A stretch of DNA of 64,000 nucleotides from an uncultured Pirellulales bacterium (GTDB taxonomy: Bacteria > Planctomycetota > Phycisphaerae > Sedimentisphaerales > Anaerobacaceae), in contig CAZMLE010000015.1 in NCBI GenBank assembly GCA_964567045.1, positions 225 to 64,224 on the forward strand, given 5' to 3'. The notes under the pieces were generated by a model, which was not told the DNA's origin, searched no databases, and saw only the letters and a program-made list of their open reading frames with translations. The position numbers and the translations under genes are program-made. Below, piece by piece: positions 37,106 through 57,145 of this stretch (positions within the stretch are counted from its first letter, which is position 1; the number at the start of each line of letters is the position of its first letter).

Positions 37106-38074
37106 TCAGCCAGCACGCTCGCTGCTGCGCGGCGAGGAATTGACCTGGTTTTTATTGAAGCTGGCGGGAGATTTATGCCAGAGCCACGCCGTGCACGCAC
37201 CACCGATTACGAAAGACCAGCCCAGTGCTATCGCTCTGTCAACCATTGCCGCCAGCACCCCCACCTGCAGCGGCACCGCAAGAACCACAGCCCCAAAGCC
37301 CAGCACCAACTCCCTGATTCCCAGTGCACCCGGCGTTAGGCTTATAAATAGAGCGAGATAGCCGAGCGTCCCAAGCAGCAAATAGCCCGCAGGGTGGATA
37401 TCCTGGCCCATGCTGTGGTAGATGATCCCGAAGCGTAAGGCCGTAAGCAAAAAATTTAGCGACAATAACATTGCCGCCATGATAGTTAGCTTTGTTTTCT
37501 TTGCGATTTGCCTGCGTCCTGAAAGGAAATCGCGCAGCATGGAACTAAACTGTCCTGCTGCCTTGGGGACAGGCAGGGGAACGAATAAGAAAAGCAGCGA
37601 ACCTGCAATTGTTATCGCGAACACGCCGGCCAGGATTTTGCTTTCGTATCCGGCCAGCTTATATACCGTCAGTAGTACGATTAAACCCACCACTGCCGCC
37701 AAAGCGGTAATTAAAAACATAACATACAAAAAGAAAGTGGCAAAATGAGTATAGGCAAGACCGTAGTGACGCTTCAAATAGTTCGCCCGAAAGAGAGTGC
37801 CGAATTTCATAGGGACATAGTTGAGTAGGGTGGCTGTGTTATTCACACAAAATATGTCCCAAAAACCAGCCTTGGCATTCAGAGCTTTCAGCAAGTATTT
37901 ATCTACCAGTGCGCTGACCGAGAGGGACAAAAAACACAAAAAATATATTATGACCAACTGTTCGAGGCCCAACTCCGATACAGTCTTTAACTCTTCCCAG
38001 TGCCTTGAAAGGTACCACAGCAGGAAGAGGATAATTGCCACGCCAAGTATATTTTTAATCCACTTAGTCACCAT
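37106..38074 (-). CDS. UPF0104 / lysylphosphatidylglycerol-synthase-TM-like (flippase-like) membrane protein
   Basis: Eight hydrophobic helices with the GALGIRE motif near the C-terminus. Confidence 0.6.
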   Translation of the reverse strand: MVTKWIKNILGVAIILFLLWYLSRHWEELKTVSELGLEQLVIIYFLCFLSLSVSALVDKYLLKALNAKAGFWDIFCVNNTATLLNYVPMKFGTLFRANYLKRHYGLAYTHFATFFLYVMFLITALAAVVGLIVLLTVYKLAGYESKILAGVFAITIAGSLLFLFVPLPVPKAAGQFSSMLRDFLSGRRQIAKKTKLTIMAAMLLSLNFLLTALRFGIIYHSMGQDIHPAGYLLLGTLGYLALFISLTPGALGIRELVLGFGAVVLAVPLQVGVLAAMVDRAIALGWSFVIGGACTAWLWHKSPASFNKNQVNSSPRSSERAG

Positions 38075-38738
38075 TTGCAGATTTGCCAATCCGATAAATG
38101 TATGATGTAGTGAGGAATACAAAATTAGATCTGAACATAAGATAGCGGCTCTGTTTTATGCCGTGTCTGGCGTAGGGCAATAAGGTGTATGTGCCGGTCC
38201 TGGCTTTAATACCGAACCCGGTAAATTCGAGCAGGGTTTGAAGGTCCGTAAAGGTAAATGAGTGAATGTGCCCCTCATGCGCAGACAGCTTCATAATGTT
38301 GGCGAAGATTGCTATCCAGTTATACGGGTTAGGAACAGATAAAAGCAGGGCGCCTTCGCTGGTAAGTATTCTATGAATTTCTCTTAACAAAAATGTGGCA
38401 TTTTCAACGTGTTCGAGTAATTCCAGACAGAAAACATAGTCAAATTGCTCCTTTTGAAAAGGTAAGCCCTTCATAACATCGCATACCTGAAAACTGCCCT
38501 TTTTGTTCTTGACACTGTTGATGACTTTCTCAGATATATCCACCGCATAATAATCACAATTTAATCCGCGTTGAGCTAAAATATCGCATAGATAAGCGTG
38601 CTTGCAGCCGACATCTAATATCCGGCTGCCGTTTTTGATCTCTACGAGTTCGAGTGCTCTGGAGTACCGCAGATAACCTTGCTTGTCGAAATCAATATAG
38701 CCAGTTGCTCTATTCTCATAAAATTCCTTTTTATGCAT
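38064..38738 (-). CDS. Class I SAM-dependent methyltransferase
   Basis: Motif I ILDVGCKHA and post-I DYYAVD. LELLEHV motif. Confidence 0.75.
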   Translation of the reverse strand: MHKKEFYENRATGYIDFDKQGYLRYSRALELVEIKNGSRILDVGCKHAYLCDILAQRGLNCDYYAVDISEKVINSVKNKKGSFQVCDVMKGLPFQKEQFDYVFCLELLEHVENATFLLREIHRILTSEGALLLSVPNPYNWIAIFANIMKLSAHEGHIHSFTFTDLQTLLEFTGFGIKARTGTYTLLPYARHGIKQSRYLMFRSNFVFLTTSYIYRIGKSANGD

Positions 38739-38759
38739 ATAATGCTCCGCCTGGCATAT

Positions 38760-39506
38760 TCAACTGCTATTCTGGCAAAGAATAAATAAGCTTCCCCCTA
38801 TGGTTTTTTCGCTTAGATACTGACTTGCCAGCAATTTCTCTAAGCATTGAATACCTGTTACGAATATTTTTTTGATGAGCATCTTATGAGTGGAAAGCTC
38901 ATACGGAAATGGCTCAAATTTGAAGCGGAGGATTTTGATGTTATCTACGGATCGAATTAGTCGCAACGCCTCCTGGCTATTCCATCTATATAAATGCCCT
39001 GATGGATGAGTTTCTAAATTTCTGGTGAGTTTTCTGATCTTGTACATGATTCTTAAAGCTATGGCGTTTTCAATGGGAATCTTAAGAAGTATATACTTTG
39101 AGCATCGAGTAATCGCTGGAATTATTTTTTCGACATTGGGTATGTGCTCCAAAATGTCGCATAGGATCAGCAGATCAAAAAAATTGGCCGGATAGTCTAA
39201 CTCGCTGATAGGTTTCACCTGGAATCTTCCAAAAGGTAAAATAGCCGCAGCCTTTTTAATAGCTACTTCTGAAATATCCACTCCATATAAGTTTTTACAG
39301 CCGGTTATTCTGTGGACTTCTTTGAGCAAAACGCCTGCTCCACAACCAACTTCGAGGATCTTATTGAAAGATAGATCGTTGGGGACTAAGCTAAATAGAT
39401 TTTCCGCCTTCCATCTGGTAGCTCGAATATAAAGCTCATCAGATAGGGCTTGCGATTTGTAGATATCGTCGTAAAATTTCTGGAAATCGATATTTTTGTT
39501 GCTCAT
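38760..39506 (-). CDS. Class I SAM-dependent methyltransferase
   Basis: Motif I ILEVGCGAGV, LYGVDIS, CDILEHI. Confidence 0.75.
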   Translation of the reverse strand: MSNKNIDFQKFYDDIYKSQALSDELYIRATRWKAENLFSLVPNDLSFNKILEVGCGAGVLLKEVHRITGCKNLYGVDISEVAIKKAAAILPFGRFQVKPISELDYPANFFDLLILCDILEHIPNVEKIIPAITRCSKYILLKIPIENAIALRIMYKIRKLTRNLETHPSGHLYRWNSQEALRLIRSVDNIKILRFKFEPFPYELSTHKMLIKKIFVTGIQCLEKLLASQYLSEKTIGGSLFILCQNSS

Positions 39507-40594
39507 AGGTCTTTTCTGTGAGCCAAGAGACTATAATACAGCTTCTCCATAAGAGAAGCATTCGCATTCCAATCATAATTGTCCATAACAAACTTTCTGC
39601 CCATTGTGCCCATGCTGGAACGCAGAGCTGGATTTTCGATAAGACAAATCAGCTTTTGCGCAATTGCCTCATGGTCGCGTGGGGTAACCAGAAATCCTGT
39701 GACCCCATCTATTATGACCTCGGGCAGTCCTCCCACAGCCGACGCAACTACTGGAAGTTCCATGGCAGATGCCTCAGCCGCCGCCCGTCCCCACGCTTCA
39801 GAAAGCGATGGTACTACAAAGATGTGCATTTTCCCCAGGTAAAGCGGCATCTGGTCGTGAGGGACCGGTCCTACAAAATTAACGCTGGCCCCAATTGAAA
39901 GCGAGTCTGCCAATTTCTTCAAAGAATTAAGCAACGGTCCCCCACCAACAATCAATAGGTTGGTCTGGGGAAATCTCTTATACACAGATGCAAAGGCTTT
40001 TATAAGATATTCAACTCCGTATAGTTTCATCAAGGTCTTGGCACATCCTATCGTTATTTTGTTCGAATGCGGTTTCATCGCAGGCTTAAATTTTGCTAAA
40101 TCGACTCCAAAAGGGATAGTCTGTACACGCCTACCTTGCGGAGCTAATTCCTGGGTACCTTTGCTTAAAGTTTTACTTGTAGCCGTGATTGCGTCTGCTT
40201 TGCTTAAGGCAAATTTGATGATTTTCTTGAAAATAAAACTTGTTGAGGGCGGATCAAAAATATCAGAACCCCAGGTTGAGACAATATATGGATGGAATCC
40301 AGCAAAAGCTCCTATAAGACCGTTGGTCGTAACGTAATGTGCATGAAGTATATCGGGATCGATATTGTTTACTATTCTTTCAATATGGAGCAGCATTTTT
40401 GTATAGGACAGCAATATTGCCGGCGGCGAAATAGGCTCAACCCCGCGCCTTATTCTTACTGGATGGACCTTTACGCCACGGATCCTTGCGTCGCGGACTG
40501 AGACCACGTGAACATCGTGCCCGTTTTCCGCAAAGTGCTCGGCCCATCTCTGCGTGTGAACGGACGCTGCATTTGCTAAAAGGCAAATTCTCAC
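39503..40594 (-). CDS. Glycosyltransferase family 4 (GT-B, retaining)
   Basis: C-terminal E(A)WGRAAAEASAMELPVVASAVGGLPEVI signature. 4-nt overlap with the downstream gene. Confidence 0.8.
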   Translation of the reverse strand: MRICLLANAASVHTQRWAEHFAENGHDVHVVSVRDARIRGVKVHPVRIRRGVEPISPPAILLSYTKMLLHIERIVNNIDPDILHAHYVTTNGLIGAFAGFHPYIVSTWGSDIFDPPSTSFIFKKIIKFALSKADAITATSKTLSKGTQELAPQGRRVQTIPFGVDLAKFKPAMKPHSNKITIGCAKTLMKLYGVEYLIKAFASVYKRFPQTNLLIVGGGPLLNSLKKLADSLSIGASVNFVGPVPHDQMPLYLGKMHIFVVPSLSEAWGRAAAEASAMELPVVASAVGGLPEVIIDGVTGFLVTPRDHEAIAQKLICLIENPALRSSMGTMGRKFVMDNYDWNANASLMEKLYYSLLAHRKDL

Positions 40595-40612
40595 CAGCCT
40601 ATTCTTCCTTTT

Positions 40613-41974
40613 TCATTCGCCTATAGTTGGCGCGAAGTGACGCTTGCCAATTTCAGAGATGACAAGCCGAATCTTGCCCGACCTGGGAACCGGAATATCT
40701 TTCACAAAATTCAATCGTATCTTTAGCTTTTCTCCGGCGCCCTGACGTATGGCGTCCTCTATATACCGGGCGTCCTGATTGGAAAACTTATTGTTCTTGA
40801 CTATCTTGACCTCTATTTCATCCTCTGCTTCTTGCACTACCTGGAATTGATCCACCGACATCATAGACTCGAATATGTGACCAAAGAAGTAAGCGACCAG
40901 GTAGTTGCCATCCGGAGTCACCACAATATCGGTGTCTCTGCCCACCACGGAGCTCATCACTGGTAGTCCTCGGCCGCACTTGCATTTCTCTTGTGACGGC
41001 CTGGCCAGGTCTCCGATCCGGAATCGGATGAAGGGCATCCCATAGTTGCTCAAATCTGTAACCAGAGCTGTCCCTAATTCAGCGGGTTTTACCGGCCGGT
41101 CGTCCTTCACAAATTCAAGCACAATATTTTCCGCTGCGATGTGGTGCGTTCCTGACTCACACTGACTCGACATTACAATGCTGTTTCCTCCATAATTGTC
41201 AAAAACCGGGCAGTGAAATTGCTCTTCAATAAGCTGCCTATAATGCGGAAATAGCATGTCACCGGTCGTTATGATCGACACCGGCTTTATATCACTAATG
41301 TTGTTATCCTTCAGATACTCTGCCAGCAAAAATACCTGTGAGGCGTACCCTCTTATTAACTCCGGCTTATACTTTCTTATCTTTTCAACGCTGTCTCGCA
41401 ATGTTTCTTGATTCATAGCGGAGAGGCGGAAGAATTTACACCGTCCAAGTGCATCCATCATCTTTTGTGCCAGCGTATCGTGGGCTATCAGGTCCAGTCT
41501 GACCCAGCGTTTGCCGAACTGGTATCCGGCCCAGCGCCAAAAGCGAAAAAGACAGGCGAACCTCCAGCTTATCGCCTGGCGGTCCTGATAGTATGGCAAA
41601 GGCTCACCCGTGGAACCGCCGCTGTGGTTCAAGGCCAGCTTCTTCCTGGGGATGTTGCTGGCAATCATGTTATCCGGGAAGTTCCTGCGTATTATGTCTT
41701 TGCTCAAGACAGGCAGCTTATGCAGGTCCTCGACCGAATTGATATCCGCCGGCTTTAATCCCAACCGATCAAAGGTCGAGCGATAGTATGGGACATTCGT
41801 GTATGAATGTTGAATCAGCTCCCGAAGTCTGCTTTCCTGAAAGGCTCGAATTTCATCGGGGGTCCACCACTGGCTGCCTTCAAGAAACTTTAAGGTTTCA
41901 AGAATATGCGTCCCTTGAGAGAGTTCCACCAGCGGAAATACTACGCTTTTGAAAATTCCGGAATAGATCTCCAT
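40613..41974 (-). CDS. Phenylacetate-CoA ligase family / CapK-like adenylate-forming enzyme
   Basis: HSGGSTGEPL adenylation motif. Size and layout of the PaaK/F390-synthetase family. Confidence 0.7.
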   Translation of the reverse strand: MEIYSGIFKSVVFPLVELSQGTHILETLKFLEGSQWWTPDEIRAFQESRLRELIQHSYTNVPYYRSTFDRLGLKPADINSVEDLHKLPVLSKDIIRRNFPDNMIASNIPRKKLALNHSGGSTGEPLPYYQDRQAISWRFACLFRFWRWAGYQFGKRWVRLDLIAHDTLAQKMMDALGRCKFFRLSAMNQETLRDSVEKIRKYKPELIRGYASQVFLLAEYLKDNNISDIKPVSIITTGDMLFPHYRQLIEEQFHCPVFDNYGGNSIVMSSQCESGTHHIAAENIVLEFVKDDRPVKPAELGTALVTDLSNYGMPFIRFRIGDLARPSQEKCKCGRGLPVMSSVVGRDTDIVVTPDGNYLVAYFFGHIFESMMSVDQFQVVQEAEDEIEVKIVKNNKFSNQDARYIEDAIRQGAGEKLKIRLNFVKDIPVPRSGKIRLVISEIGKRHFAPTIGE

Positions 41975-42993
41975 TAGAGATACCTTTCAATCGTTGCCAC
42001 GATATATTCGGTAACATCTATTTTGGCCGCGAGCAACCTCTCGCGGGCAGCCAGGCACTTCTCCTTAGCCGCTGAGTCGGAGAGCCAGTCGATACAATAT
42101 TGCAGGGCCTGTTCGGTATCGGCTGTTTGTTTGATAAGCCCATACCGCTCGAGCATATCAATTGTGCCTGCTCTTAGTGTGTTGACATACACTGAAGGCA
42201 CACCCAGTATCGCGGACTCACTCGCCATCGTAGCCCCTTCGCCGACATATAGGGCGGCAAATGCCATCACATGGTGTATCCGGTGCACAGGAATATACAG
42301 GCGGTAAGGCTCAAGCTCGGCGGGCAATGGGCTTTCGGAAGTTATGTAGGGTCTTGCATAGCGGGCTATTTCCTCAACGAACCTCAGCCTGTCGCGCTCA
42401 ACAAGGCCGTGTTGGAAGGCGTCATGATGTGCCTGCCAGCTTACAAACCGAATTATGCAATACTTTTGTGCCGGATCAATCCCCAGACCTTTTACAGCTT
42501 CGCTATCGGCGGTAAATCTTTTGGGGTGCAAATAAGCAAGTTCATGTAAACCGGCGTACAGGTGATGCTTTTCGCCGAAGGATTTTTTGTAACAATCGGG
42601 GCTATAAATAGCCGTAACAAAAGGGTGTGTGATTTTGTGGGCCGCAGTTGCAATTTCCGTATCATCCCAGACGACAACCGGTTTGCCCAGCACCCAGCCA
42701 ACATGTGCCGCGAAAACTCCGCTGATTGCGGTAAGTATGTCCGGCTTGAATTGCCGGCAGAATCGAAACAGTCTCGCATCCCGCACCAGCATTTCACCAA
42801 ATAAGGACATCTTTGTCTGGCCCATTTTGCTTAGCTGTGTAAAGGCAATCCCGTAATGGTGCAGCAGCTCGATTGTGACATCCTTATCTCTGGCGGTTAC
42901 AGCAACTTTGTGCCCACGTTTTTGGAACTCTGCTATCGCGTTGCGAAAGAAATGAACGTGGGCAGGATGTGTCATTTCAACCAAAATTCTCAT
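41974..42993 (-). CDS. DUF354 family protein (GT-B/epimerase-like fold)
   Basis: MRILVEMTHPAHVHFFRNAIAEFQKRGHKVAVTARDKDVTIELL matches the characteristic DUF354 N-terminus as I recall it. Confidence 0.65.
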   Translation of the reverse strand: MRILVEMTHPAHVHFFRNAIAEFQKRGHKVAVTARDKDVTIELLHHYGIAFTQLSKMGQTKMSLFGEMLVRDARLFRFCRQFKPDILTAISGVFAAHVGWVLGKPVVVWDDTEIATAAHKITHPFVTAIYSPDCYKKSFGEKHHLYAGLHELAYLHPKRFTADSEAVKGLGIDPAQKYCIIRFVSWQAHHDAFQHGLVERDRLRFVEEIARYARPYITSESPLPAELEPYRLYIPVHRIHHVMAFAALYVGEGATMASESAILGVPSVYVNTLRAGTIDMLERYGLIKQTADTEQALQYCIDWLSDSAAKEKCLAARERLLAAKIDVTEYIVATIERYL

Positions 42994-43025
42994 TGTTAAA
43001 TAGCAAAAGCGCCAAAAGCCGGAGT

Positions 43026-43982
43026 TTATTTCAATTCCTTATTGCTTTCCATATCGAACCACATAGCAAAAAGTGTGAACTGAACGGAGCTTATGAATGA
43101 GAACATAGCCGCTAGTGCGTTAATGCGGGGAATTTGGCCGGCCGCAAACCAGATATAAAATACCCTAAAAAACAGGATAGCGGTAGATAGGCCGAACAAA
43201 AGGCCAAACATATAAAAGAAAACCAGCGGATGAAAATCTCTGATTACGTATTTTTCCTTGAGGCGATATAGAAAATCCTTCAGAAGCAGCCACGATAGCG
43301 TTATCATAACTTTTCGCAATTTTATCTTGGATACTTCGCCGATATTGTAAACCGGCTTGACAGGAATATCACGAACTCTAAAGTTATAGATATTCAGCTT
43401 CACGAGCATGTCATTCGGCATGCCAAACCTTTTATAGATTTTGTCCAGGTCCAAAATTTCCAGGGCTCTTAGATTTATCACTGTATATCCCGTTTGAGAA
43501 TCTGCCACGTGCCAGTAGCCGGACGCGATCTTGGTCAGCAAAGATAAGTAGGAGTTACCCAGGTATCGTACCTTCGGTATGACCTGCCAGGCGTTGCCGG
43601 TAAAAAGGCGATTTCCCTTGGCGTAGTCAACTTGGTCTGCAACTACGGGGTCTAAGAGATTTGGCAGGTCGGCAGGGTCCATCTGAGCGTCTCCGGCCAT
43701 AACCGCGGTGACGTCAATCTTGTTATCGCGTGCCCATTTATAGCCGCTCGCGATTGCGCCGCCCACGCCCTGGTTTTCGCTGTGCTGAATGAGAATTATC
43801 CGCCCGTTGGATTGCTCAGCGGCTTTGATTACAATCTCTGCGGTTTTGTCTGTGCTCTTGTCATCGACCACCACCACTTTGTCCACGTAATCGGGCATGG
43901 TTTCAAGAACTCTGCCGATCAGTTTTTCTTCGTTGTATGCCGGCACAACCACGCAAACTGTCTTACCTTTGTACATTGCCAA
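43026..43982 (-). CDS. Glycosyltransferase family 2, polyprenyl-phosphate sugar synthase-like (ArnC/DPM1-like) with C-terminal TM helices
   Basis: VVVPAYNEE..VVVVDDKSTDKT..DAQMD motifs. Two C-terminal hydrophobic helices. Confidence 0.8.
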   Translation of the reverse strand: MAMYKGKTVCVVVPAYNEEKLIGRVLETMPDYVDKVVVVDDKSTDKTAEIVIKAAEQSNGRIILIQHSENQGVGGAIASGYKWARDNKIDVTAVMAGDAQMDPADLPNLLDPVVADQVDYAKGNRLFTGNAWQVIPKVRYLGNSYLSLLTKIASGYWHVADSQTGYTVINLRALEILDLDKIYKRFGMPNDMLVKLNIYNFRVRDIPVKPVYNIGEVSKIKLRKVMITLSWLLLKDFLYRLKEKYVIRDFHPLVFFYMFGLLFGLSTAILFFRVFYIWFAAGQIPRINALAAMFSFISSVQFTLFAMWFDMESNKELK

Positions 43983-44283
43983 TCTCCAAGCGACGCTTTA
44001 TAATTATCCTCTGCGATAGCGGTTCTGAGTAGCTAAAAACCACGCCGAGTAGTAAAATTCATACCGTCGTGAACGCTGCAAATGAACCTTCAAGGGCAGA
44101 TATTCCGGGATTGCTCGACGTTTAGCATCTTTGAGGGCGTCTGGCAAAAATTGAGACTGTGCAAGGGGTTTTGATAAATGGAATGCCCAGATGGCCGAGC
44201 CGCTGTGGACAACGCAGGCCGGCGCGCGCAAAACGACCAGACCTAAGAAGAAAAAGGCATAAGGACATTACTGAGAGGTCAGA

Positions 44284-45841: not shown

Positions 45842-45874
45842 GGACTTTTGGATTTGCGATTTCGACGTACTTCT

Positions 45875-46417
45875 ATGCTGGAAAGAGGTCTGGTTCAGAT
45901 TTATACCGGCGACGGCAAGGGCAAGACTACCGCTGCGTTCGGCCTGGCATTGCGTGCGGCTGGTCAGGGCCACAAGGTTCTGATTTATCAGTTCTTAAAA
46001 CCTCCTTCTCTGGATATTGGCGAGCGTTTTGCCCTTAAGTTGGGTGCGCTGCGAATCCGCGTCGAAGCACTCGATGCGCCCTGGGATATGTCTAAAGCTC
46101 TCGCAGACGAGCACGCTGTCGCCAACGTGAAAACCGCGATTAGCGATGCACTTACACGACTTGCTGAAACCGCGGAGAAAAGGTTCTATGACGTGCTAAT
46201 ACTCGATGAGATTGTGTATTGCCTTTCACAAGGTCTTGCTAAGCTGCAAGAAGTTAAGAACATCATTGACAAAAGAGACCCTGCTGTCGAAATCGTTCTA
46301 ACCGGCACAGGTGCAACGGACGAACTGATTGCGATAGCGGACTTAGTGACGGAGATGAAAAACATAAAGCATCCATTTGATAAAGGCGTGCCAGCGCGAC
46401 GGGGCATTGAATTTTAA
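45875..46417 (+). CDS. cobO: Cob(I)yrinic acid a,c-diamide adenosyltransferase
   Basis: GLVQIYTGDGKGKTTAAFGLALRAAGQG..VLIYQFLK and LDEI motifs. ATG 45875 chosen because the track start lies in repeat DNA. Confidence 0.85.
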   Translation: MLERGLVQIYTGDGKGKTTAAFGLALRAAGQGHKVLIYQFLKPPSLDIGERFALKLGALRIRVEALDAPWDMSKALADEHAVANVKTAISDALTRLAETAEKRFYDVLILDEIVYCLSQGLAKLQEVKNIIDKRDPAVEIVLTGTGATDELIAIADLVTEMKNIKHPFDKGVPARRGIEF

Positions 46418-46722: not shown

Positions 46723-47283
46723 TTGCTCTTTCTGGTGCTATTGTATCGGCGGATTCGCTACGGCTATCCGTTCCGGCGGATACCGCTGACGCTGGGCAAA
46801 TTCGCCATCGTTGATCCCGAAGATTACGACCGATTGCGCAAGTACAAATGGCACGTCAATAAAAGCGTCCACACCTTTTACGCCGTTCACTCGCTGACAA
46901 ACGGTAGGAATGCGCCGCGGAGAAATTTGCAGATGCACAACCTGGTGATTGACGTGCCGCCCGGCATGTATTGCGACCACATAAACCACAACGGCCTGGA
47001 TAATCGAAAGGCCAATCTCCGTCCAGCCAGCGGGGCGCAAAGCGTCTGGCACAGACGTAAATTTACCCACCGTACGTATGGCGGATTCAAAAAGCCCAGC
47101 CGCTCCAGATATAAGGGCGTGGACTGGGCAGCGGATGTGAAGCGCTGGCGGGCGCGAATCCGCGTCAACGGCAAAAGGCTTTCTCTCGGCTTATTCAAAG
47201 ATGAAATCGAAGCCGCTAAGGCTTACGACCAAGCCGCCAAAAAATATCACGGCGAATTTGCCAGTTTGAACTTCCCTGATTAA
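46723..47283 (+). CDS. HNH endonuclease plus AP2/ERF-type DNA-binding domain protein
   Basis: HNH_3-like CDHINHNGLDNRKANLR. AP2-like YKGVDW..KRWRARIRVNGKRLSLGLFKDEIEAAKAYDQAAKKYHGEFASLNFP. Confidence 0.75.
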   Translation: MLFLVLLYRRIRYGYPFRRIPLTLGKFAIVDPEDYDRLRKYKWHVNKSVHTFYAVHSLTNGRNAPRRNLQMHNLVIDVPPGMYCDHINHNGLDNRKANLRPASGAQSVWHRRKFTHRTYGGFKKPSRSRYKGVDWAADVKRWRARIRVNGKRLSLGLFKDEIEAAKAYDQAAKKYHGEFASLNFPD

Positions 47284-47468: not shown

Positions 47469-47678
47469 ATGAAAGTAAAGACAAAGAGAAAGCCCCCTGA
47501 AATTGTTATACGGAATAGCAAACCAGTGGCGGTTATCCTCGATATTGACGAGTATCAGGAGATTCTTGAGCGCCTCGAAGATGCGGAGGACTTGAGGATG
47601 TTGCAGGCGATGAAAAAAAGGCCACTTCATTTCAGAAAGCTAAACGAATTCTTAAAGGAATATAATGCGAGTGTATGA
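47469..47678 (+). CDS. Type II antitoxin, Phd/YefM family
   Basis: PVAVILDIDEYQEILERLEDAEDL. 14-nt overlap with the toxin gene. Confidence 0.75.
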   Translation: MKVKTKRKPPEIVIRNSKPVAVILDIDEYQEILERLEDAEDLRMLQAMKKRPLHFRKLNEFLKEYNASV

Positions 47679-47925
47679 GGTATATCTTGAACGAGCCACT
47701 GAGCGGGACCTGAGACGGCTTTCGGCAGATTATTTCCGGCGCATCATACGGCAAATCAAAGCTCTATCTGAAACGCCAAGGCCTGTCGGATGCCGGAAAA
47801 TCAGCGGCTCAAAGAACGATTGGCGGATTCGGATTGGAGAGTATCGAGTGATATATGAGATTGACGATAGAGCCAAAGTAGTACGGGTGATGGGAGTCAG
47901 GCACAGACGGGAGGTATATCGGTAG
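47665..47925 (+). CDS. Type II toxin, RelE/ParE family
   Basis: WRIRIGEYRVIYEIDDRAKVVRVMGVRHRREVY is the canonical RelE/ParE C-terminus. Confidence 0.8.
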   Translation: MRVYEVYLERATERDLRRLSADYFRRIIRQIKALSETPRPVGCRKISGSKNDWRIRIGEYRVIYEIDDRAKVVRVMGVRHRREVYR

Positions 47926-47928
47926 AAA

Positions 47929-48177
47929 ATGGGTCCTATTGAGTTAGACCAGAAAATCAAGCAGTTCACCGACTATATCAACTACTGGGCTGTGGATTTT
48001 AACTTCAGGGATGATACCTTCCATAATATGTGACAGTCGTTCATAACGAAAAATCGCCCCAATCTCGAGACAAGGTGTTCTTATGACTATGAACAAGCTG
48101 GAAAGTATCAGGTCTTGGTCAAGGTTGTAGATATTTTCGGCAATGATACTAACAAGCTTATGGAGATAGAGCTATGA
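47929..48177 (+). pseudogene. C-terminal remnant of a DNA methyltransferase gene with an in-frame stop
   Basis: YWAVDFNFRDDTFHNM-stop-QSFITKNRPNLET..YDYEQAGKYQVLVKVVDIFGNDTNKLMEIEL. The YxVxVKVxDIFGNDT tail is characteristic of a class of site-specific DNA methylases. TGA at 48030-48032. Confidence 0.6.
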
Positions 48178-48503
48178 CAACCGATACAAGGATTAGAAAG
48201 ATAATCAGTGAGATCGTGGACAGAATATTAAAGGGATATAAACCAAAGAAGGTTATCCTCTTTGGCTCTTATGCCTATGGAGAACCGACAGAGGACAGCG
48301 ATATTGACCTTCTAATTATCAAGAACACCGATAAGAGACCTATTGACAGATGGGTTGAGGTAAAAAGGCTTTTGCGGGACAACAGCCGAACCCTTCCCGT
48401 CTCACCTCTCGTTTATACTGAGAAAGAGATTGAAGAGAGAATTGCCATAAAGGATTTCTTTATCGAAGAAATACTTGAAAAGGGGGATGTTCTTTATGGA
48501 TAA
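48174..48503 (+). CDS. MNT-type minimal nucleotidyltransferase (antitoxin-type of HEPN/MNT pairs)
   Basis: LFGSYAYGEPTEDSDIDLLII (GS..D.D NTase motif). Confidence 0.8.
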   Translation: MTTDTRIRKIISEIVDRILKGYKPKKVILFGSYAYGEPTEDSDIDLLIIKNTDKRPIDRWVEVKRLLRDNSRTLPVSPLVYTEKEIEERIAIKDFFIEEILEKGDVLYG

Positions 48504-48547
48504 AGCCTTCAAAAAGCAGGCAGCCGCTCACCCATTTTCCTTCGCCA

Positions 48548-48582
48548 GATACGAAATACGACATACAATATACGACATACGA
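48548..48582 (+). repeat. Heptanucleotide tandem array, TACGA class (5 units)
   Basis: GATACGA AATACGA CATACAA TATACGA CATACGA. Confidence 0.8.
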
Positions 48583-48586
48583 ACAA

Positions 48587-48617
48587 ATTACGGCCAATTC
48601 GCTAGTTTGAACTTCCC
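48587..48617 (+). pseudogene. Remnant of the 3' end of a second HNH-AP2 gene copy
   Basis: attacggccaattcgctagtttgaacttccc versus 47246-47276 atcacggcgaatttgccagtttgaacttccc: 27/31 identical. Encodes YGQFASLNFP versus HGEFASLNFP. Confidence 0.6.
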
Positions 48618-48770
48618 CAAAAATAATAGCCCCACGTTTCAGATGGAGTTGTTTCTTCCGCTGAGCAGCGTTTCTATCTTTATCGCAGTTTAAACCGTTT
48701 CAAATGCGCCGCTTAAAGCAAAAGGAAATTCAAAAATGGATCATCGCTAGAAATAAAAAACAATCTCCTC

Positions 48771-48799
48771 TTGACTATATGTGAACACAACAATATAGT
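48771..48799 (+). promoter_or_regulatory. Near-consensus sigma-70-type promoter with overlapping operator-like palindrome
   Basis: TTGACT (48771-48776), 17-nt spacer, TATAGT (48794-48799). Inverted repeat ACACAAC (48785-48791) / GTTGTGT (48798-48804). ATG at 48807. Confidence 0.55.
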
Positions 48800-48806
48800 T
48801 GTGTGT

Positions 48807-49253
48807 ATGATACCTGATTTCGTAGATATTGGAGGACCTTGGAATGTTTTACCTCCCGGGGTACATGTTGCAACACTTGAAGAGATCGAAAAACGTTTTG
48901 CTATATCTGACCATAGAAAATATCTCTTCTATGGATTTATAAAAGGTGTATTAGCCCTGCGTAAAGCTGGATGCCGAAAAATCTTTCTTGACGGCAGTTT
49001 TGTTACGGAAAAGCCCATACCAGGTGATTTTGATGTTTGTTGGGATCCTATGGGAGTAGACATTACAAAATTAGATCCTGTTTTTCTTGACTTTTCTGAC
49101 GGACGCAAAAAACAGAAAGAGTTCTTCCATGGAGAATTCTTTCCGGTCGGTTTTCTTGAAAAGGGCAAGAACTTCTTTTTTGATTTTTTCCAGATCGATA
49201 GATACACGGGAGACGCTAAAGGTATTATTTGTGTAAGTTTTTCCAAAATTTGA
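48807..49253 (+). CDS. Small protein with minimal nucleotidyltransferase-like motif (resembles what I recall as DUF6932)
   Basis: MIPDFVDIGGPWNVLPPGVHVATLEEIEKRF..IFLDGSFVTEKPIPGDFDVCW (G-S..D.D-like). Confidence 0.55.
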   Translation: MIPDFVDIGGPWNVLPPGVHVATLEEIEKRFAISDHRKYLFYGFIKGVLALRKAGCRKIFLDGSFVTEKPIPGDFDVCWDPMGVDITKLDPVFLDFSDGRKKQKEFFHGEFFPVGFLEKGKNFFFDFFQIDRYTGDAKGIICVSFSKI

Positions 49254-49270
49254 AGGAAGAGGATATTATT

Positions 49271-50563
49271 ATGATAACAAATGAAAGGCAGTATCGAATC
49301 ACAAGCAATCAAATAGAAAAACTCAAGACAACAATTGACACTTTTGACATCAAAGCAGTTACTGGGCGAGCAAAGTCGAAAATTTTGGCGAAAGCAGAAC
49401 TGGAGGCACTGCGTAGTGAATACGAAAACCTTTCTGTGCAACTTCATGAATATGAAACATTAAAATCTGGAACTATTGAGATACTAAAAGAACCGAGCTT
49501 GAAAGAGTTGCCACGTATTCTTATCAGAGCACGTATTGCAAGAGGGCTTTCACAACGTCAGCTTGCAGAGGCTATTGGTTTGAAGGAACAACAGATTCAA
49601 AGATATGAAGCCGAGGAATATGCTTCTGCGAATTTACATCGGCTTGTTGAAGTGGCACATGCACTTGGCCTAAACATAAGTGAAGTTGCGGAATTCAGAA
49701 CGATATCGCCAGCACCTCTTGTTGATACAGACAAAGGTGATTTAGCATGGGATCAGTTCCCGATTAAGGAGATGTTTCGTCGCAATTGGTTTAAGGAATC
49801 CCCCGGCTCTTTGGATGCGGCTGTAGCCAATGCCGAAGAACTTGTCAGGGAATTCGTGAAAAGTTCTCTTGATAAGCCGATCCAAGCATTTGCGCGTCAG
49901 CGTGTGCGTTCGGGAGGCAAAGTCGATTGGTATGCCCTTCTTGCGTGGCAATGTCGAATTATAAGCCTTGCAAAAAAGAAGGAAGTGGCATGCAAATACA
50001 AACAGAAAGCAATTACTAATGAATGGCTGAATGAACTTGCCCATATAAGTATCGAAAAAGATGGCCCCAAAAAAGCTATTGACTATTTGCAGGATTTAGG
50101 GATTCGTTTGGTTATTGAACAACATCTGCCGCAAACACATTTAGACGGGGCGGCTTTTTTATTACCTGATGGTTCACCAATAATTGGAATGACCTTACGT
50201 TTTGACAGAATTGATAACTATTGGTTTGTTCTTTTACACGAGCTTGTTCATATAATTAAACACTTACACAAGGAAGATATAGAAAGCATATTTGACGATC
50301 TCGATGTAGAAGCTGGAGATATTGAAAAGGAGGCAGATGGGCTGGCGGGCGAAATCCTTGTTCCTGAAGACAAATGGAATACGGCCTTGGCACGTTATCT
50401 AAGAAGTAAAGAATCCATCGAAGATTTTGCACAGAAATTGAATATTCATCCTGCGATAGTAGCAGGAAAAATACAAAGAGAAGCAAAAAATTATACGATT
50501 CTTACAGATATGGTCGGACAGGGCGAAGTAAGGAGACTTTTCCCAGATGTCTGCTTTTATTAA
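49271..50563 (+). CDS. Fusion of coiled-coil, XRE-family HTH and ImmA/IrrE-type (COG2856, M78) metallopeptidase domains
   Basis: HTH: IRARIARGLSQRQLAEAIGLKEQQIQRYEAEEYASANLHRLVEVAHALG. HExxH: LLHELVHIIKH, with downstream EADGLAGEILVP. Start ATG 49271 lies 18 nt after the upstream stop. Confidence 0.8.
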   Translation: MITNERQYRITSNQIEKLKTTIDTFDIKAVTGRAKSKILAKAELEALRSEYENLSVQLHEYETLKSGTIEILKEPSLKELPRILIRARIARGLSQRQLAEAIGLKEQQIQRYEAEEYASANLHRLVEVAHALGLNISEVAEFRTISPAPLVDTDKGDLAWDQFPIKEMFRRNWFKESPGSLDAAVANAEELVREFVKSSLDKPIQAFARQRVRSGGKVDWYALLAWQCRIISLAKKKEVACKYKQKAITNEWLNELAHISIEKDGPKKAIDYLQDLGIRLVIEQHLPQTHLDGAAFLLPDGSPIIGMTLRFDRIDNYWFVLLHELVHIIKHLHKEDIESIFDDLDVEAGDIEKEADGLAGEILVPEDKWNTALARYLRSKESIEDFAQKLNIHPAIVAGKIQREAKNYTILTDMVGQGEVRRLFPDVCFY

Positions 50564-50574
50564 CATAGGAGAAT

Positions 50575-51678
50575 ATGATGAGCTTTAATCACACCCAATA
50601 TATACCATGCCTTCGATGGAAACTTGGGGAATATCAGGCCGTGTCACAATTACCCGACACGATAAAACGCGTATTTACGCCGATAATAGAAGCCCCGGGG
50701 AAGGGATATGATTTTGCAACGAGGAAAGAAAAGAAAACAATAGATGAACTATTGGCTCCTTTTGCAAAACGAGTTCGTAATAACTGGGGAAAATTACCCT
50801 GTTTGGTGGACTTGCGCCTGATCAAAGATACCGAACGAATGGCAAACGGAGATGCTCCAGTTCACTTTGTATTTGATGAACTTCGAGCGTTGGATTGCCA
50901 AGCTATACCAGTAACAAGCCTCCTCAGAGATGCAGAATATCAGCAAGAAATTAAAGCGGTTATGGTCAAAGATAAAAATGGTATTTGTCTGAGAATAACA
51001 ATAGAGCAGGCTGCGAAGAGCACATTTAAAGCAGAAGTAGACTCGTTATTGTTAACATTAGAAATTCAACCTGCAGAATGTGATTTTATTTTAGATTTAG
51101 GTGCGCCAAATTTTGCTCCTCTTGACGGATTCGTAAAGATAATTAAAGATATTGTGACTAAATTGCCTTATTTAAAGAATTGGAGAACATTTACTCTTTT
51201 GGGAACCTCTTTTCCGGAATCAATGGGTAGTGTCAAAAAAAGAGGAGAAATTGTTCCTCGCTATGAATGGCAATTATATAAGGCATTAGTTAATGCTCTA
51301 AGAAAAGCAAATTTACGGCTACCTGCTTTTGGTGACTATGCTATAAATCATCCTAAAGAACTCGAACTTGATTGGAGAATCGTAAAACCTTCTGCAACAA
51401 TAAGGTATACTATTGATGACCGTTGGTATATTGTAAAAGGGGACAACATTAGAGATTATGGTTATCAACAATATCATGAACTTAGCCAAAATGTTTTGAC
51501 TTCTCGTTATTATTACGGACCGACCTTTTCATGGGGAGATGATTATATCGAGGCATGTGCAAATAAGAACGCTAAAACTGGCAACCCTACAAAGTGGATA
51601 CAGGTTGGTACAAGTCATCATATTGTGAAGGTGACACGGGACATCGCCAGTTTCTACGCTTCTTCAAGCAGTCCCTAA
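50575..51678 (+). CDS. Beta-protein family (Pfam Beta_protein-like) protein
   Basis: N-terminus YIPCLRWKLGEYQAVSQL..TPIIEAP matches the YxPxLKxKxGExxAL start of that family as I recall it. AGGAG SD. Starts 11 nt after the ImmA stop. Confidence 0.6.
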   Translation: MMSFNHTQYIPCLRWKLGEYQAVSQLPDTIKRVFTPIIEAPGKGYDFATRKEKKTIDELLAPFAKRVRNNWGKLPCLVDLRLIKDTERMANGDAPVHFVFDELRALDCQAIPVTSLLRDAEYQQEIKAVMVKDKNGICLRITIEQAAKSTFKAEVDSLLLTLEIQPAECDFILDLGAPNFAPLDGFVKIIKDIVTKLPYLKNWRTFTLLGTSFPESMGSVKKRGEIVPRYEWQLYKALVNALRKANLRLPAFGDYAINHPKELELDWRIVKPSATIRYTIDDRWYIVKGDNIRDYGYQQYHELSQNVLTSRYYYGPTFSWGDDYIEACANKNAKTGNPTKWIQVGTSHHIVKVTRDIASFYASSSSP

Positions 51679-52246
51679 CAATTTTTCGTAATTCATTGGT
51701 GGTGAGAAGGTCTGCCAGTTGTTCATACAAAACATCGCGAGGCTGGTGAAGAATTTTGGGCGGTAGTTTTTTCGAGGATAAAATTTCTGCTGCTTCATCA
51801 CGCCATAATAATTGTGCTATAGATATTGGGTCGATGTTCTTATTCGTCTGAGCCTCGCGGACTATATTAAAATTGACAGCGCCTCTTGGGCCTCTTATAG
51901 ATACTATTACTCCCCACCATTCAGGAATATAGTTCTGAATAGATTTGATATAACGGTCACCTACAATTATGGAAACTTTATCAAAAACTGCATTATATGA
52001 CTTAACTTGTTCCTCAAGCCTGCGGAGCGAATCATTGTTGCTCTTAATCTCATAGCCAACGAACTGTCCATTGACTACGGCAATATCTGCTCGACATTTC
52101 CCATGATTTAGGCCAAGCTCATCAATCACAAGCGTATCTTTTTGAGCATGTTGCCGTCGCAGTCTTTTCTTATGGAAGTTTTGTCTAATCTCTATATCAT
52201 TCATGACATACCACTTCATTAATAACGACCGAGATTTTTTGAACAA
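51587..52246 (-). CDS. PD-(D/E)xK nuclease-fold protein, sce7726-like family
   Basis: IRQNFHKKRL..LVIDELGLNHGKCRADIAVVNGQFVGYEIKSNNDSLRRLEEQVKSYNAVFDKVSIIV. D..E-x-K core and family-typical N-terminus. The start could be 52246, 52216 or 52204. Confidence 0.65.
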   Translation of the reverse strand: MFKKSRSLLMKWYVMNDIEIRQNFHKKRLRRQHAQKDTLVIDELGLNHGKCRADIAVVNGQFVGYEIKSNNDSLRRLEEQVKSYNAVFDKVSIIVGDRYIKSIQNYIPEWWGVIVSIRGPRGAVNFNIVREAQTNKNIDPISIAQLLWRDEAAEILSSKKLPPKILHQPRDVLYEQLADLLTTNELRKIVRDCLKKRRNWRCPVSPSQYDDLYQPVSTL

Positions 52247-52458
52247 TCATATACAAGTTCAAAATTCAAAATCAATAACTTTTCTAATTTTACGCTTTTG
52301 CTCTTTGGTTAATTTGCAGAACCGAACTAACGGTACTACTCGGCAAACTTTATCCTGCGGCGTTAATTATTTTACGCGATATTAAAGAGACTAATCACGA
52401 GTCAGAAGCAATCCCTACGTTCGCGGAGATAGACTTGCCTTTGGGGGAGGGAGAGGAT

Positions 52459-56569: not shown

Positions 56570-57145
56570 TTATTCTCCGACACTGCTTTGAATATCGCGG
56601 AAATCCGGCGGCTCTATATTTTTTGTGGCGCAATCGCACAGCCAATCGATTTTGTAATATCCTTGCCTTACCCATTGGTGGAAACTCGAATGTGGCCAAA
56701 GATGTGGACACGCCACCAGCTTGTGTTTGACCGGATTATAATGGATGTAGTTGACGTGCTTGATCAAGTCATCTTCGCTTCTTATGGTATGCTCCCAGAA
56801 CCGTCTCTGCCATACGCCTTTCTCGCGAAATTTTTCGCGATAAGCAGGAATGGCACCTTCGCGGCCGCCTGCCATAAGCCAGGACTGAGTAAACCCTTTC
56901 TTTATGCACGACCAGCGGACGGAGAAATCTGCATCGTCCTCGGGTAGTCTCCATACACAACGCAGATGGTCAGGCATAAGTACCATAGCCAGGACATCGA
57001 AAGGCCTGTCCGCTTGCACCTGGCGGATCGATTGACGCAGGAACGAGCGGGCTTGGGAATCCTGAAATATCTTCAGACGGTTATGGGTGACAAGCGTAAA
57101 GAAGAACGTTCCACCCGGCTGATATACGCGACGATAATCCGGCAT
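56570..57145 (-). CDS. REP-associated tyrosine transposase (IS200/IS605-like Y1), copy 1, HUH motif degenerate
   Basis: GGTFFFT..DVLAMVLMPDHLRCVW (H-L-R instead of H-x-H)..RRFWEH..YIHYNPVKH. 191 aa. Confidence 0.85.
   Translation of the reverse strand: MPDYRRVYQPGGTFFFTLVTHNRLKIFQDSQARSFLRQSIRQVQADRPFDVLAMVLMPDHLRCVWRLPEDDADFSVRWSCIKKGFTQSWLMAGGREGAIPAYREKFREKGVWQRRFWEHTIRSEDDLIKHVNYIHYNPVKHKLVACPHLWPHSSFHQWVRQGYYKIDWLCDCATKNIEPPDFRDIQSSVGE

Follow-up and report, generated by a model that had tools for sequence, protein, structure and literature searches.

The closest described relatives of the four-gene locus analyzed here are two anti-phage systems, PD-λ-2 and gop-β-cII. The locus lies in a 64,000-nucleotide stretch (the window) of contig CAZMLE010000015.1, from an uncultured Pirellulales bacterium. 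PD-λ-2, a three-gene system of Escherichia coli ECOR42, protects against λvir by abortive infection (Vassallo 2022, PMC9519451). Its A protein is HigB-like; its B protein, a fusion of an Xre-type helix-turn-helix (HTH) domain and a peptidase, is toxic alone and is rescued by A; and its C protein, "related to a P4 phage antitoxin," is required for defense (PMC9519451). The gop-β-cII system confers protection from λ and P1; its Gop component is toxic when β is absent (Rousset et al. 2022, PMC9122126), and an accessory gene of a phage, orf184, sets off the toxicity of the system (bioRxiv 10.1101/2023.04.06.535777). In satellite phage P4, gop (247-648) and β (651-1718) are on the plus strand and cII (1746-2540) is on the minus strand, and RefSeq calls cII a "sce7726 family protein." The P4 β and cII genes were reportedly described by Ghisotti in 1990. 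ImmA, IrrE, and CapP represent an established paradigm of protease-driven switches. In the MNT-HEPN (type VII) systems, a small nucleotidyltransferase (NTase) with a GS...DxD motif neutralizes its partner by AMPylation.

The original prediction, made from the sequence alone, described three co-directional, tightly spaced genes behind a near-consensus promoter, with a fourth gene facing them. This layout was confirmed. Genes g1, g2, and g3 are on the plus strand and g4 is convergent on the minus strand (Table 1). The 11-nucleotide (nt) gap between g2 and g3 was as predicted, and that between g1 and g2 is 17 nt rather than 18 nt. Hidden Markov model (HMM) searches bore out the family calls: g1 is a DUF6932 protein, g2 contains HTH_3 and Peptidase_M78 domains, g3 is a Beta_protein, and g4 belongs to sce7726_fam. 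We refer to the four products as A', B', β, and cII. The suggestion that this is an undescribed immunity-type module had to be abandoned because g2 and g3 match the PADLOC models PD-Lambda-2_B and PD-Lambda-2_C, and g3 and g4 are homologous to P4 β and cII and, like them, convergent; a match to a system already named was one of the outcomes that the prediction itself had listed as refuting it. Judged by these sequence relationships, the module is the XRE-peptidase and β core of PD-λ-2 joined to the β and cII pair of gop-β-cII, with a DUF6932 gene in first position. A role in defense, or one resembling that of a toxin-antitoxin (TA) system, is the best reading of the module. We regard the locus as probably a horizontally acquired, four-gene member of a β-centered, TA-like group of anti-phage systems that act by abortive infection.

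Like PD-λ-2, the locus has three co-directional, tightly packed genes, the second encoding an XRE-HTH/ImmA-IrrE fusion and the third a β-family protein, with a candidate palindromic operator that overlies the promoter just ahead of the first start codon. The two differ in the first gene, which is HigB-like in PD-λ-2 and DUF6932 here (g1 has no match to the PD-Lambda-2_A model), in the N-terminal third of the B protein, and in the operator. In E. coli, the gene after β in HigB-ImmA/IrrE-β loci is of the SIR2 family or hypothetical, and an integrase gene comes next. On two E. coli chromosomes (L174 and L175), HigB-ImmA/IrrE-β lies between a small recombinase gene and the integrase gene, in strain C next to the SIR2-family gene, and two TTCC-N-GGAA palindromes flank a TTGACA promoter.

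The likeness to gop-β-cII ("Rst_gop_beta_cll") is a small first gene upstream of β, followed by a convergent cII/sce7726 gene. However, the window has no Gop homologue, and an XRE-peptidase gene stands between its first gene and β. In P4, β and cII are 27 nt apart with an annotated terminator between them, whereas the genes in the window overlap; furthermore, no P4-like satellite surrounds the window locus. Modules of β and cII alone (in the Rac-SA53 prophage, the E. coli phage-like plasmid pSTEC1024_3, and plasmids of Rhodococcus and Bacillus) have the same convergent, same-frame overlap, of 41, 41, 32, and 32 nt, but lack both upstream genes. We know of no reported function for these two-gene modules. 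ImmA/ImmR, IrrE/DdrO, and CapP/CapH share with the window an M78 HExxH peptidase that works with an XRE HTH. The protease and repressor of those switches are two proteins that control the genes of another element, whereas here they are fused and encoded in their own operon; the switches are nonetheless a useful model for how B' could be triggered. The MNT proteins of MNT-HEPN systems are the best, but weak and non-significant, structural neighbors of A'. The window module has no HEPN partner, and DUF6932 is a separate Pfam family.

The distribution of the module was evaluated by scanning one genome per species with an alignment of B as the query. At least 561 relatives were recovered, and the best 80 loci were classified with HMMs built from seed loci. 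The β alignment contains no stretch conserved enough to serve as an anchor; the census was anchored on B, hence it covers B-containing loci and is biased to relatives of g2. The original expectation that the four families co-occur as a conserved module was borne out, with A'-B'-β-cII in 47 of the 80 loci and carriers in more than 10 phyla. Five further loci have A'-B'-β without cII and four have A'-B' only. A HigB-like first gene heads 18 of the 80 loci; the A proteins of such loci match the PD-Lambda-2_A model at about 1e-40 and also match Pfam HigB_toxin. Four HigB-type loci (L069, L072, L080, and L085) carry β and a convergent cII as well, so cII joins both branches. Loci of the DUF6932 type outnumber those of the HigB type by 58 to 18 among the best 80, a ratio biased to the DUF6932 type because g2 was the query. 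Thus, the family is modular around β, and the variant in the window is the commonest among the loci retrieved by this g2-seeded scan.

Carriers include Planctomycetota, Verrucomicrobiota, Chloroflexota, Desulfobacterota, Myxococcota, Alpha- and Gammaproteobacteria, Bacteroidota, Acidobacteriota, Nitrospirota, and Actinomycetota. Among cultured organisms the module is found in Sphingomonas, Novosphingobium, Flavobacterium, Hyphomicrobium, and Mesorhizobium and on rhizobial plasmids. A plasmid of Sinorhizobium terangae has an identical four-gene layout, with 53% (DUF6932), 40% (XRE protein), and 46% (sce7726) identity to the proteins of the window; its third gene is annotated as a "beta family protein" and its fourth as a convergent, overlapping "sce7726 family protein." The four-gene layout also recurs on metagenomic contigs whose flanks are unrelated, and in a close relative the module occupies the same position by rpoD/dnaG. 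A scan of 2.9 million viral contigs yielded one A'-B'-β-cII, four HigB-B-β, and five short-B, β, and cII loci. The flanks of 40 loci contained 115 different Pfam families and differed from locus to locus. The only recurrent mobile or defense signals in them, counted without a background comparison, were integrase (7 ORFs [open reading frames]), AbiE (2), and HipA (1).

Several architectures depart from these arrangements. In the five short-B loci (IMG/VR contigs L103, L114, L144, L154, and L160), a B protein of about 285 amino acids (aa), apparently the peptidase part only, is followed by β and a convergent, overlapping cII, and neither a DUF6932 nor a HigB gene was detected. The A and B genes of PD-λ-2 likewise circulate as a module of two: HigB-like and XRE-peptidase pairs with no β detected after them were found in L070, L076 to L079, L081, L084, L086, L088, L089, L091, and L092, although three of these contigs end too soon for certainty. 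The B protein of L086, the one tested, matches PD-Lambda-2_B over its full length. In L025, L039, and L063, β is split into two ORFs (in L063, B as well), and in these copies the module has probably been frameshifted or is decaying. The module is also present on large rhizobial, Agrobacterium, and Acinetobacter plasmids. On Acinetobacter pittii pNDM-AP_882 (L002) and the related plasmids NZ_CP045561 and NZ_CP059301, a DUF6932-B'-β-cII module is split: a 66-aa β stump is followed by an IS30-family element and blaNDM-1/ble, and the remainder of β and the sce7726 gene lie about 10 kb farther on.

Promoter-like sites in the region were not above chance (12 found versus 10.4 expected). The promoter of g1 is nevertheless conserved in position: of 51 homologous loci, 37 have a TTGACA-like −35 hexamer (at least 5 of 6 matches) in the corresponding location. 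The palindrome ACACAAC-N6-GTTGTGT upstream of g1 is the sole perfect copy in the window, and we consider it candidate operator DNA for the B' HTH (ACACAACAATATAGTTGTGT). Of 56 DUF6932-type loci, 51 have a palindrome of the form ACAAY-N(3 or 6)-RTTGT no more than 60 nt upstream of gene A, and in 48 of these it ends 3 to 5 nt before the start codon. The motif is otherwise rare; it had 169 hits on both strands in 0.76 Mb of loci, of which about 102 are operators counted twice.

The two branches of the family differ in these palindromes. The ACAAY type is present in 50 of 55 DUF6932-type but 0 of 20 HigB-type loci, whereas TTCC-N-GGAA palindromes are present in 14 of 20 HigB-type loci, those of E. 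coli included, but in only 3 of 55 DUF6932-type loci. The type of palindrome goes with the HTH subtype, and B' and canonical B differ in the N-terminal third that bears the HTH. That palindrome and HTH vary together is good indirect evidence for the binding of B, through its HTH, to its own promoter. The spacing of the operator and −10 box to the ATG suggests that the A'-B'-β mRNA is leaderless or nearly so.

The B' protein is comprised of an N-terminal extension, an XRE HTH (residues 86 to 138), a middle region, and an M78 peptidase of the ImmA/IrrE type (residues 302 to 393). It matches HTH_3 at 8.8e-13 and Peptidase_M78 at 4.9e-8. The PD-Lambda-2_B match, at 4.3e-92, covers model positions 126 to 398 only, whereas canonical B proteins match this model over their full length at 1e-149. 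The H323-E324-x-x-H327 motif and a downstream glutamate, E352, are invariant in six B proteins with 31 to 74% identity to B'. Given these intact catalytic residues, the peptidase is probably active. The CapP/CapH and RmrA models gave weak matches in the module. More than 2,800 clusters are homologous to B' at E<1e-10; the top 120 are 73 to 94% identical, and those with a named source are attributed to metagenome-assembled genomes of Planctomycetota, Woesebacteria, or Chlamydiota.

The β protein matches Beta_protein (PF14350) at 2e-78, PD-Lambda-2_C at 1.1e-62, and the PADLOC model "beta" at 6.2e-11. It has no NCBIfam match at E<0.01. Identity to P4 β, which also matches PF14350, is 21% over the full length (E 3e-7). 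A sequence search against PDB sequences returned nothing for β. The AlphaFold2 (AF2) model (mean predicted local distance difference test score [pLDDT] of 92, predicted template modeling score of 0.91) has alternating β and α elements. The only Foldseek matches of the model were generic TIM barrels, with E values of 4e-5 to 1e-3 and template modeling (TM) scores of 0.3 to 0.4; they included aldolases, GH53 galactanase, tryptophan synthase α, and designed barrels. The β protein is therefore predicted to be a divergent (β/α)8 TIM barrel. Active sites of TIM barrels lie at the C-terminal ends of the barrel strands. Residues E19, D174, R229, and D254 of β are invariant or nearly so and lie at or just after such ends in the model, and thus β looks like an enzyme rather than a simple antitoxin.

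The fourth protein matches NCBIfam sce7726_fam at 5.3e-55 and PADLOC "cll" at 3.3e-33. Its homologues carry PF26915 (Phage_P4_cII) in precomputed annotation, and it has 28% identity to P4 cII (E 1e-19). A sce7725/sce7726 pairing was not found; g4 belongs to sce7726_fam, but its partner g3 is a PF14350 β protein. Residues E43, D54, E66, K68, R52, D72, R76, and Q80 (numbered in the 219-aa ORF) are invariant in 44 sequences that include P4 cII. The E43...D54...E66-x-K68 pattern fits an E-D-ExK nuclease site. The PD-(D/E)xK fold originally proposed for g4 and the minimal NTase fold proposed for g1 are both supported by their invariant motifs only. Neither the g4 sequence nor the cII profile retrieved anything from PDB sequences, and a Pfam scan of all 44 cII homologues gave no consistent nuclease family, with isolated noise-level matches to HSDR_N_2 and Cas4.

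The 3' ends of β and cII overlap by 44 to 95 nt in all 51 pairs from genome loci, and every overlap length is two more than a multiple of 3. Conserved residues of both proteins (H348/H349 of β and W200/R201 of cII) fall within the overlap in the window. No terminator-like hairpin was found after g3 on the plus strand. The sole terminator-like hairpin downstream of g4 on the minus strand lies about 330 nt inside g3, which is weak evidence. With the genes overlapping and no terminator hairpin after g3, convergent transcription would yield RNA antisense to the partner gene. A regulatory role for this antisense overlap is a speculation.

The first gene occupies the position of the HigB-like A gene of PD-λ-2 or of gop in P4. 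Its product matches Pfam DUF6932 (PF22014) at 3.5e-30. We rejected a diverged HigB because there was no PADLOC PD-Lambda-2_A match even at E≤10, and a diverged Gop because BLASTP against P4 Gop gave no alignment and Gop has no DUF6932 match. The motif G63-S64-x9-D74-x-D76 and E110 are invariant in 43 sequences. In the AF2 model (pLDDT 89), the motif residues follow the strand at 58 to 62, lie at the strand at 76 to 79, and lie on the strand at 110 to 113, the order on consecutive strands expected of a minimal NTase. The best Foldseek matches of the model were MNT antitoxins (7ae9, 6m6u, and 7bxo), HI0073, kanamycin NTase, and CdnE, with E values of 0.25 to 1 and TM scores of about 0.3. The model retrieved nothing significant from viral structures, the sequence retrieved nothing from PDB sequences, and no Pfam NTase family was matched. 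An NTase function for A' is plausible but unproven. A DUF6932-like protein is also component A of the PADLOC candidate system PDC-M63, the model of which A' matches at 2.4e-9.

The following mechanism is modeled on the experiments with PD-λ-2 and gop-β-cII and on the ImmA/IrrE/CapP paradigm. The HTH of B', presumably as a dimer, would bind the palindrome over the −10 box and transcription start, so that the A'-B'-β operon would repress itself. By analogy with PD-λ-2, B' would be potentially toxic and held in check by A', which might restrain it by binding or, given the NTase-like site, by nucleotidylation. The β protein, a probable enzyme, would couple a phage cue to activation. Infection would trigger the M78 peptidase domain to cut itself or a partner; repression and neutralization would be lost, and growth would stop, the outcome of abortive infection. 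cII might serve as an accessory nuclease-like effector or modulator, its expression coupled to that of β by the convergent overlapping transcription; across the family it is optional. The logic of the original prediction, in which a sensor protease controls a nuclease and an NTase, is possible, but in PD-λ-2 the protease fusion itself is toxic and is neutralized by the product of the first gene.

A number of considerations weigh against the proposed abortive-infection role or parts of it. The experimental support for the DUF6932 variant comes entirely from its relatives. The B' protein and canonical PD-λ-2 B share only their C-terminal two thirds. The neutralizer role of A' is argued from gene position alone, A' having no PD-Lambda-2_A match and being unrelated to Gop, and there is no statistical support for either the NTase fold of A' or the nuclease fold of cII. 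With regard to the contribution of cII, the convergent gene is present in the window but not in the E. coli loci, and the fragment cloned in the Vassallo study ends 396 nt past the β gene. The neighbors of the module are mostly housekeeping genes, so there is no strong defense-island signal.

A broader proposal, which is possible but distinctly tentative, is that the DUF6932-headed module is a widespread branch of a single β-centered superfamily that unites PD-λ-2 and gop-β-cII. In such a superfamily the TIM-barrel β would be the common sensor or effector, the first genes (NTase-like, HigB-like, or Gop) would be interchangeable, and the cII nuclease would be optional. The NTase-like protein would control the XRE-peptidase by nucleotidylation, and the fixed-frame overlap of β and cII would be regulatory.

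A plain addiction module, acting by post-segregational killing, or a stress-response TA module could have a comparable layout and would stabilize plasmids or islands with no dedicated anti-phage role. The TA-like gene order and candidate self-repression site of the module, its presence on the large plasmids of rhizobia, Agrobacterium, and Acinetobacter, and its mostly housekeeping flanks are what such a module might be expected to show, and Xre-COG2856 fusions beside toxins have been predicted to form three-component TA systems (PMC2701414). However, both of the relatives that have been studied experimentally protect against phages, and four genes, including those for TIM-barrel and nuclease-like proteins, exceed the needs of addiction. 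We consider addiction an unlikely explanation on its own, and the two roles are not exclusive.

Less probable still is a system with a mechanism of its own, the DUF6932 NTase producing a nucleotide signal or modifying a target in the manner of cyclic oligonucleotide-based antiphage signaling systems (CBASS) or MNT systems, with the likeness to PD-λ-2 reflecting a shared regulatory or sensor cassette only. The invariance of the GS...DxD...E motif, the identity of the best structural neighbors (MNT antitoxins, kanamycin NTase, and CdnE), and the DUF6932-like component A of PDC-M63 would all be consistent with nucleotide transfer. Yet those structural matches are non-significant (E≥0.25, TM about 0.3), and A' is only 148 aa long, with no recognizable substrate-binding domain. 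Furthermore, the orthologues of B', β, and cII function alongside HigB or Gop, partners that are not enzymes.

It is very improbable that the locus is an ImmR/ImmA- or DdrO/IrrE-type switch for prophage or integrative and conjugative element (ICE) lysogeny or excision, or for a DNA damage regulon, even though both the XRE HTH and the M78 peptidase known from such switches are found in g2 and the module has weak CapP/CapH and RmrA matches: no phage or conjugation genes surround the module between cobA and rpoD/dnaG in the window, a single A'-B'-β-cII locus in the viral contigs compares with 47 among the best 80 loci of the genome scan, the flanks vary by locus, the repressor and protease are fused, and the operator is on the module's own promoter. 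Genomic context (the viral-contig scan and the flanks of the loci) argues against control of a prophage or ICE, another of the outcomes that the original prediction had listed as refuting it.

Horizontal acquisition of the module is most likely in view of its low guanine-plus-cytosine (GC) content, the heterogeneous flanks across loci, and the integrases beside some copies. As predicted, the block is more AT-rich than its surroundings, with a GC content of 0.375 to 0.414 at 48 to 52 kb compared with about 0.50 to 0.54 in the flanks on both sides. It lies within a low-GC insert of about 6 kb that has housekeeping genes on either side. To the left are cobA (45848-46417), an AP2/HNH gene, a Phd/ParE pair, and an orphan MNT-type NTase gene; to the right are rpoD and dnaG. 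The predicted island of TA modules was recovered in the form of the upstream Phd/ParE pair, but no methylase remnant was found, only S-adenosylmethionine (SAM) methyltransferase genes at 38 to 39.5 kb.

The TTG at 48771 that lengthens the g1 ORF upstream is actually the −35 hexamer. The likely start of g4 is the ATG at 52204 or 52219, as indicated by homologues and by a gene caller, which gave 210 aa for the protein in locus L173.

Table 1. Coordinates of genes and candidate regulatory features of the four-gene module in the window.
Feature	Coordinates	Strand	Length	Description
Sigma-70-like promoter of the g1-g2-g3 operon	48771..48799	+		−35 TTGACT, 17-nt spacer, −10 TATAGT; 10/12 consensus matches
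Palindromic operator candidate	48785..48804	strandless		ACACAAC-N6-GTTGTGT; covers −10 box, ends 2 nt before g1 ATG
g1 (A')	48807..49253	+	148 aa from ATG	DUF6932 protein
g2 (B')	49271..50563	+	430 aa	XRE HTH and M78 peptidase fusion
g3 (C, β)	50575..51678	+	367 aa	Beta_protein family
g3/g4 3'-end antisense overlap	51587..51678	strandless	92 nt	
g4 (D, cII)	51587..52204	−	about 205-210 aa	cII/sce7726 family; longest ORF to 52246
Promoter-like site upstream of g4	52246..52275	−		TTGATT-18-TATGAT; 9/12; consensus match only

Several neighboring features were also recorded. At 47469-47925, in the same low-GC insert as the module, is a separate type II TA pair in which the genes for a Phd/YefM-type antitoxin (69 aa) and a ParE-type toxin (86 aa) overlap. 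The orphan MNT-type NTase gene at 48174-48503 (NTP_transf_2, 7e-12; weak MntA and HalB matches) has no HEPN partner, and the adjoining ORF at 48475-48693 has no Pfam match. A 36-nt direct repeat, with 83% identical copies at 47241-47276 and 48582-48617, represents a duplication, just upstream of the module, of the 3' end of the AP2/HNH gene (46723-47283). Its copies lie on either side of the ParE/Phd and MNT cassette, which suggests that the cassette was inserted or that copies of the AP2 gene recombined. An AP2-domain gene also adjoins the module in another locus (L013). Just past dnaG, at 56570-57145 on the minus strand, is a gene of the IS200-like Y1 transposase family (PF01797, 4e-7). A second low-GC stretch (0.41 to 0.47) at 38000-44000 contains glycosyltransferase genes (GT1, GT2, GT4, and DUF354) and two class-I SAM methyltransferase genes and is probably a surface-polysaccharide cluster unrelated to the module.

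The kind of system to which this locus appears to belong is already known, with two named systems, PD-λ-2 and gop-β-cII. As far as the literature shows, novelty lies in the four-gene variant headed by DUF6932 and how widely it is spread, the connection of cII with PD-λ-2-type operons, operators that differ by subtype, the fixed frame of the β/cII overlap, and the prediction of a TIM barrel for β. Our literature search found no mention of DUF6932 or PF14350, and sce7726 was mentioned only in genome descriptions.

Current HMM sets would probably miss the DUF6932 variant as a complete PD-λ-2 system because component A is unmatched. PD-λ-2 and gop-β-cII share more than β, as cII joins both HigB-type and DUF6932-type operons and the first gene is interchangeable. 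Both are validated anti-phage systems, and this locus offers as handles an operator specific to the HTH subtype, a predicted β TIM barrel with candidate active-site residues, and a fixed-frame overlap of β and cII.

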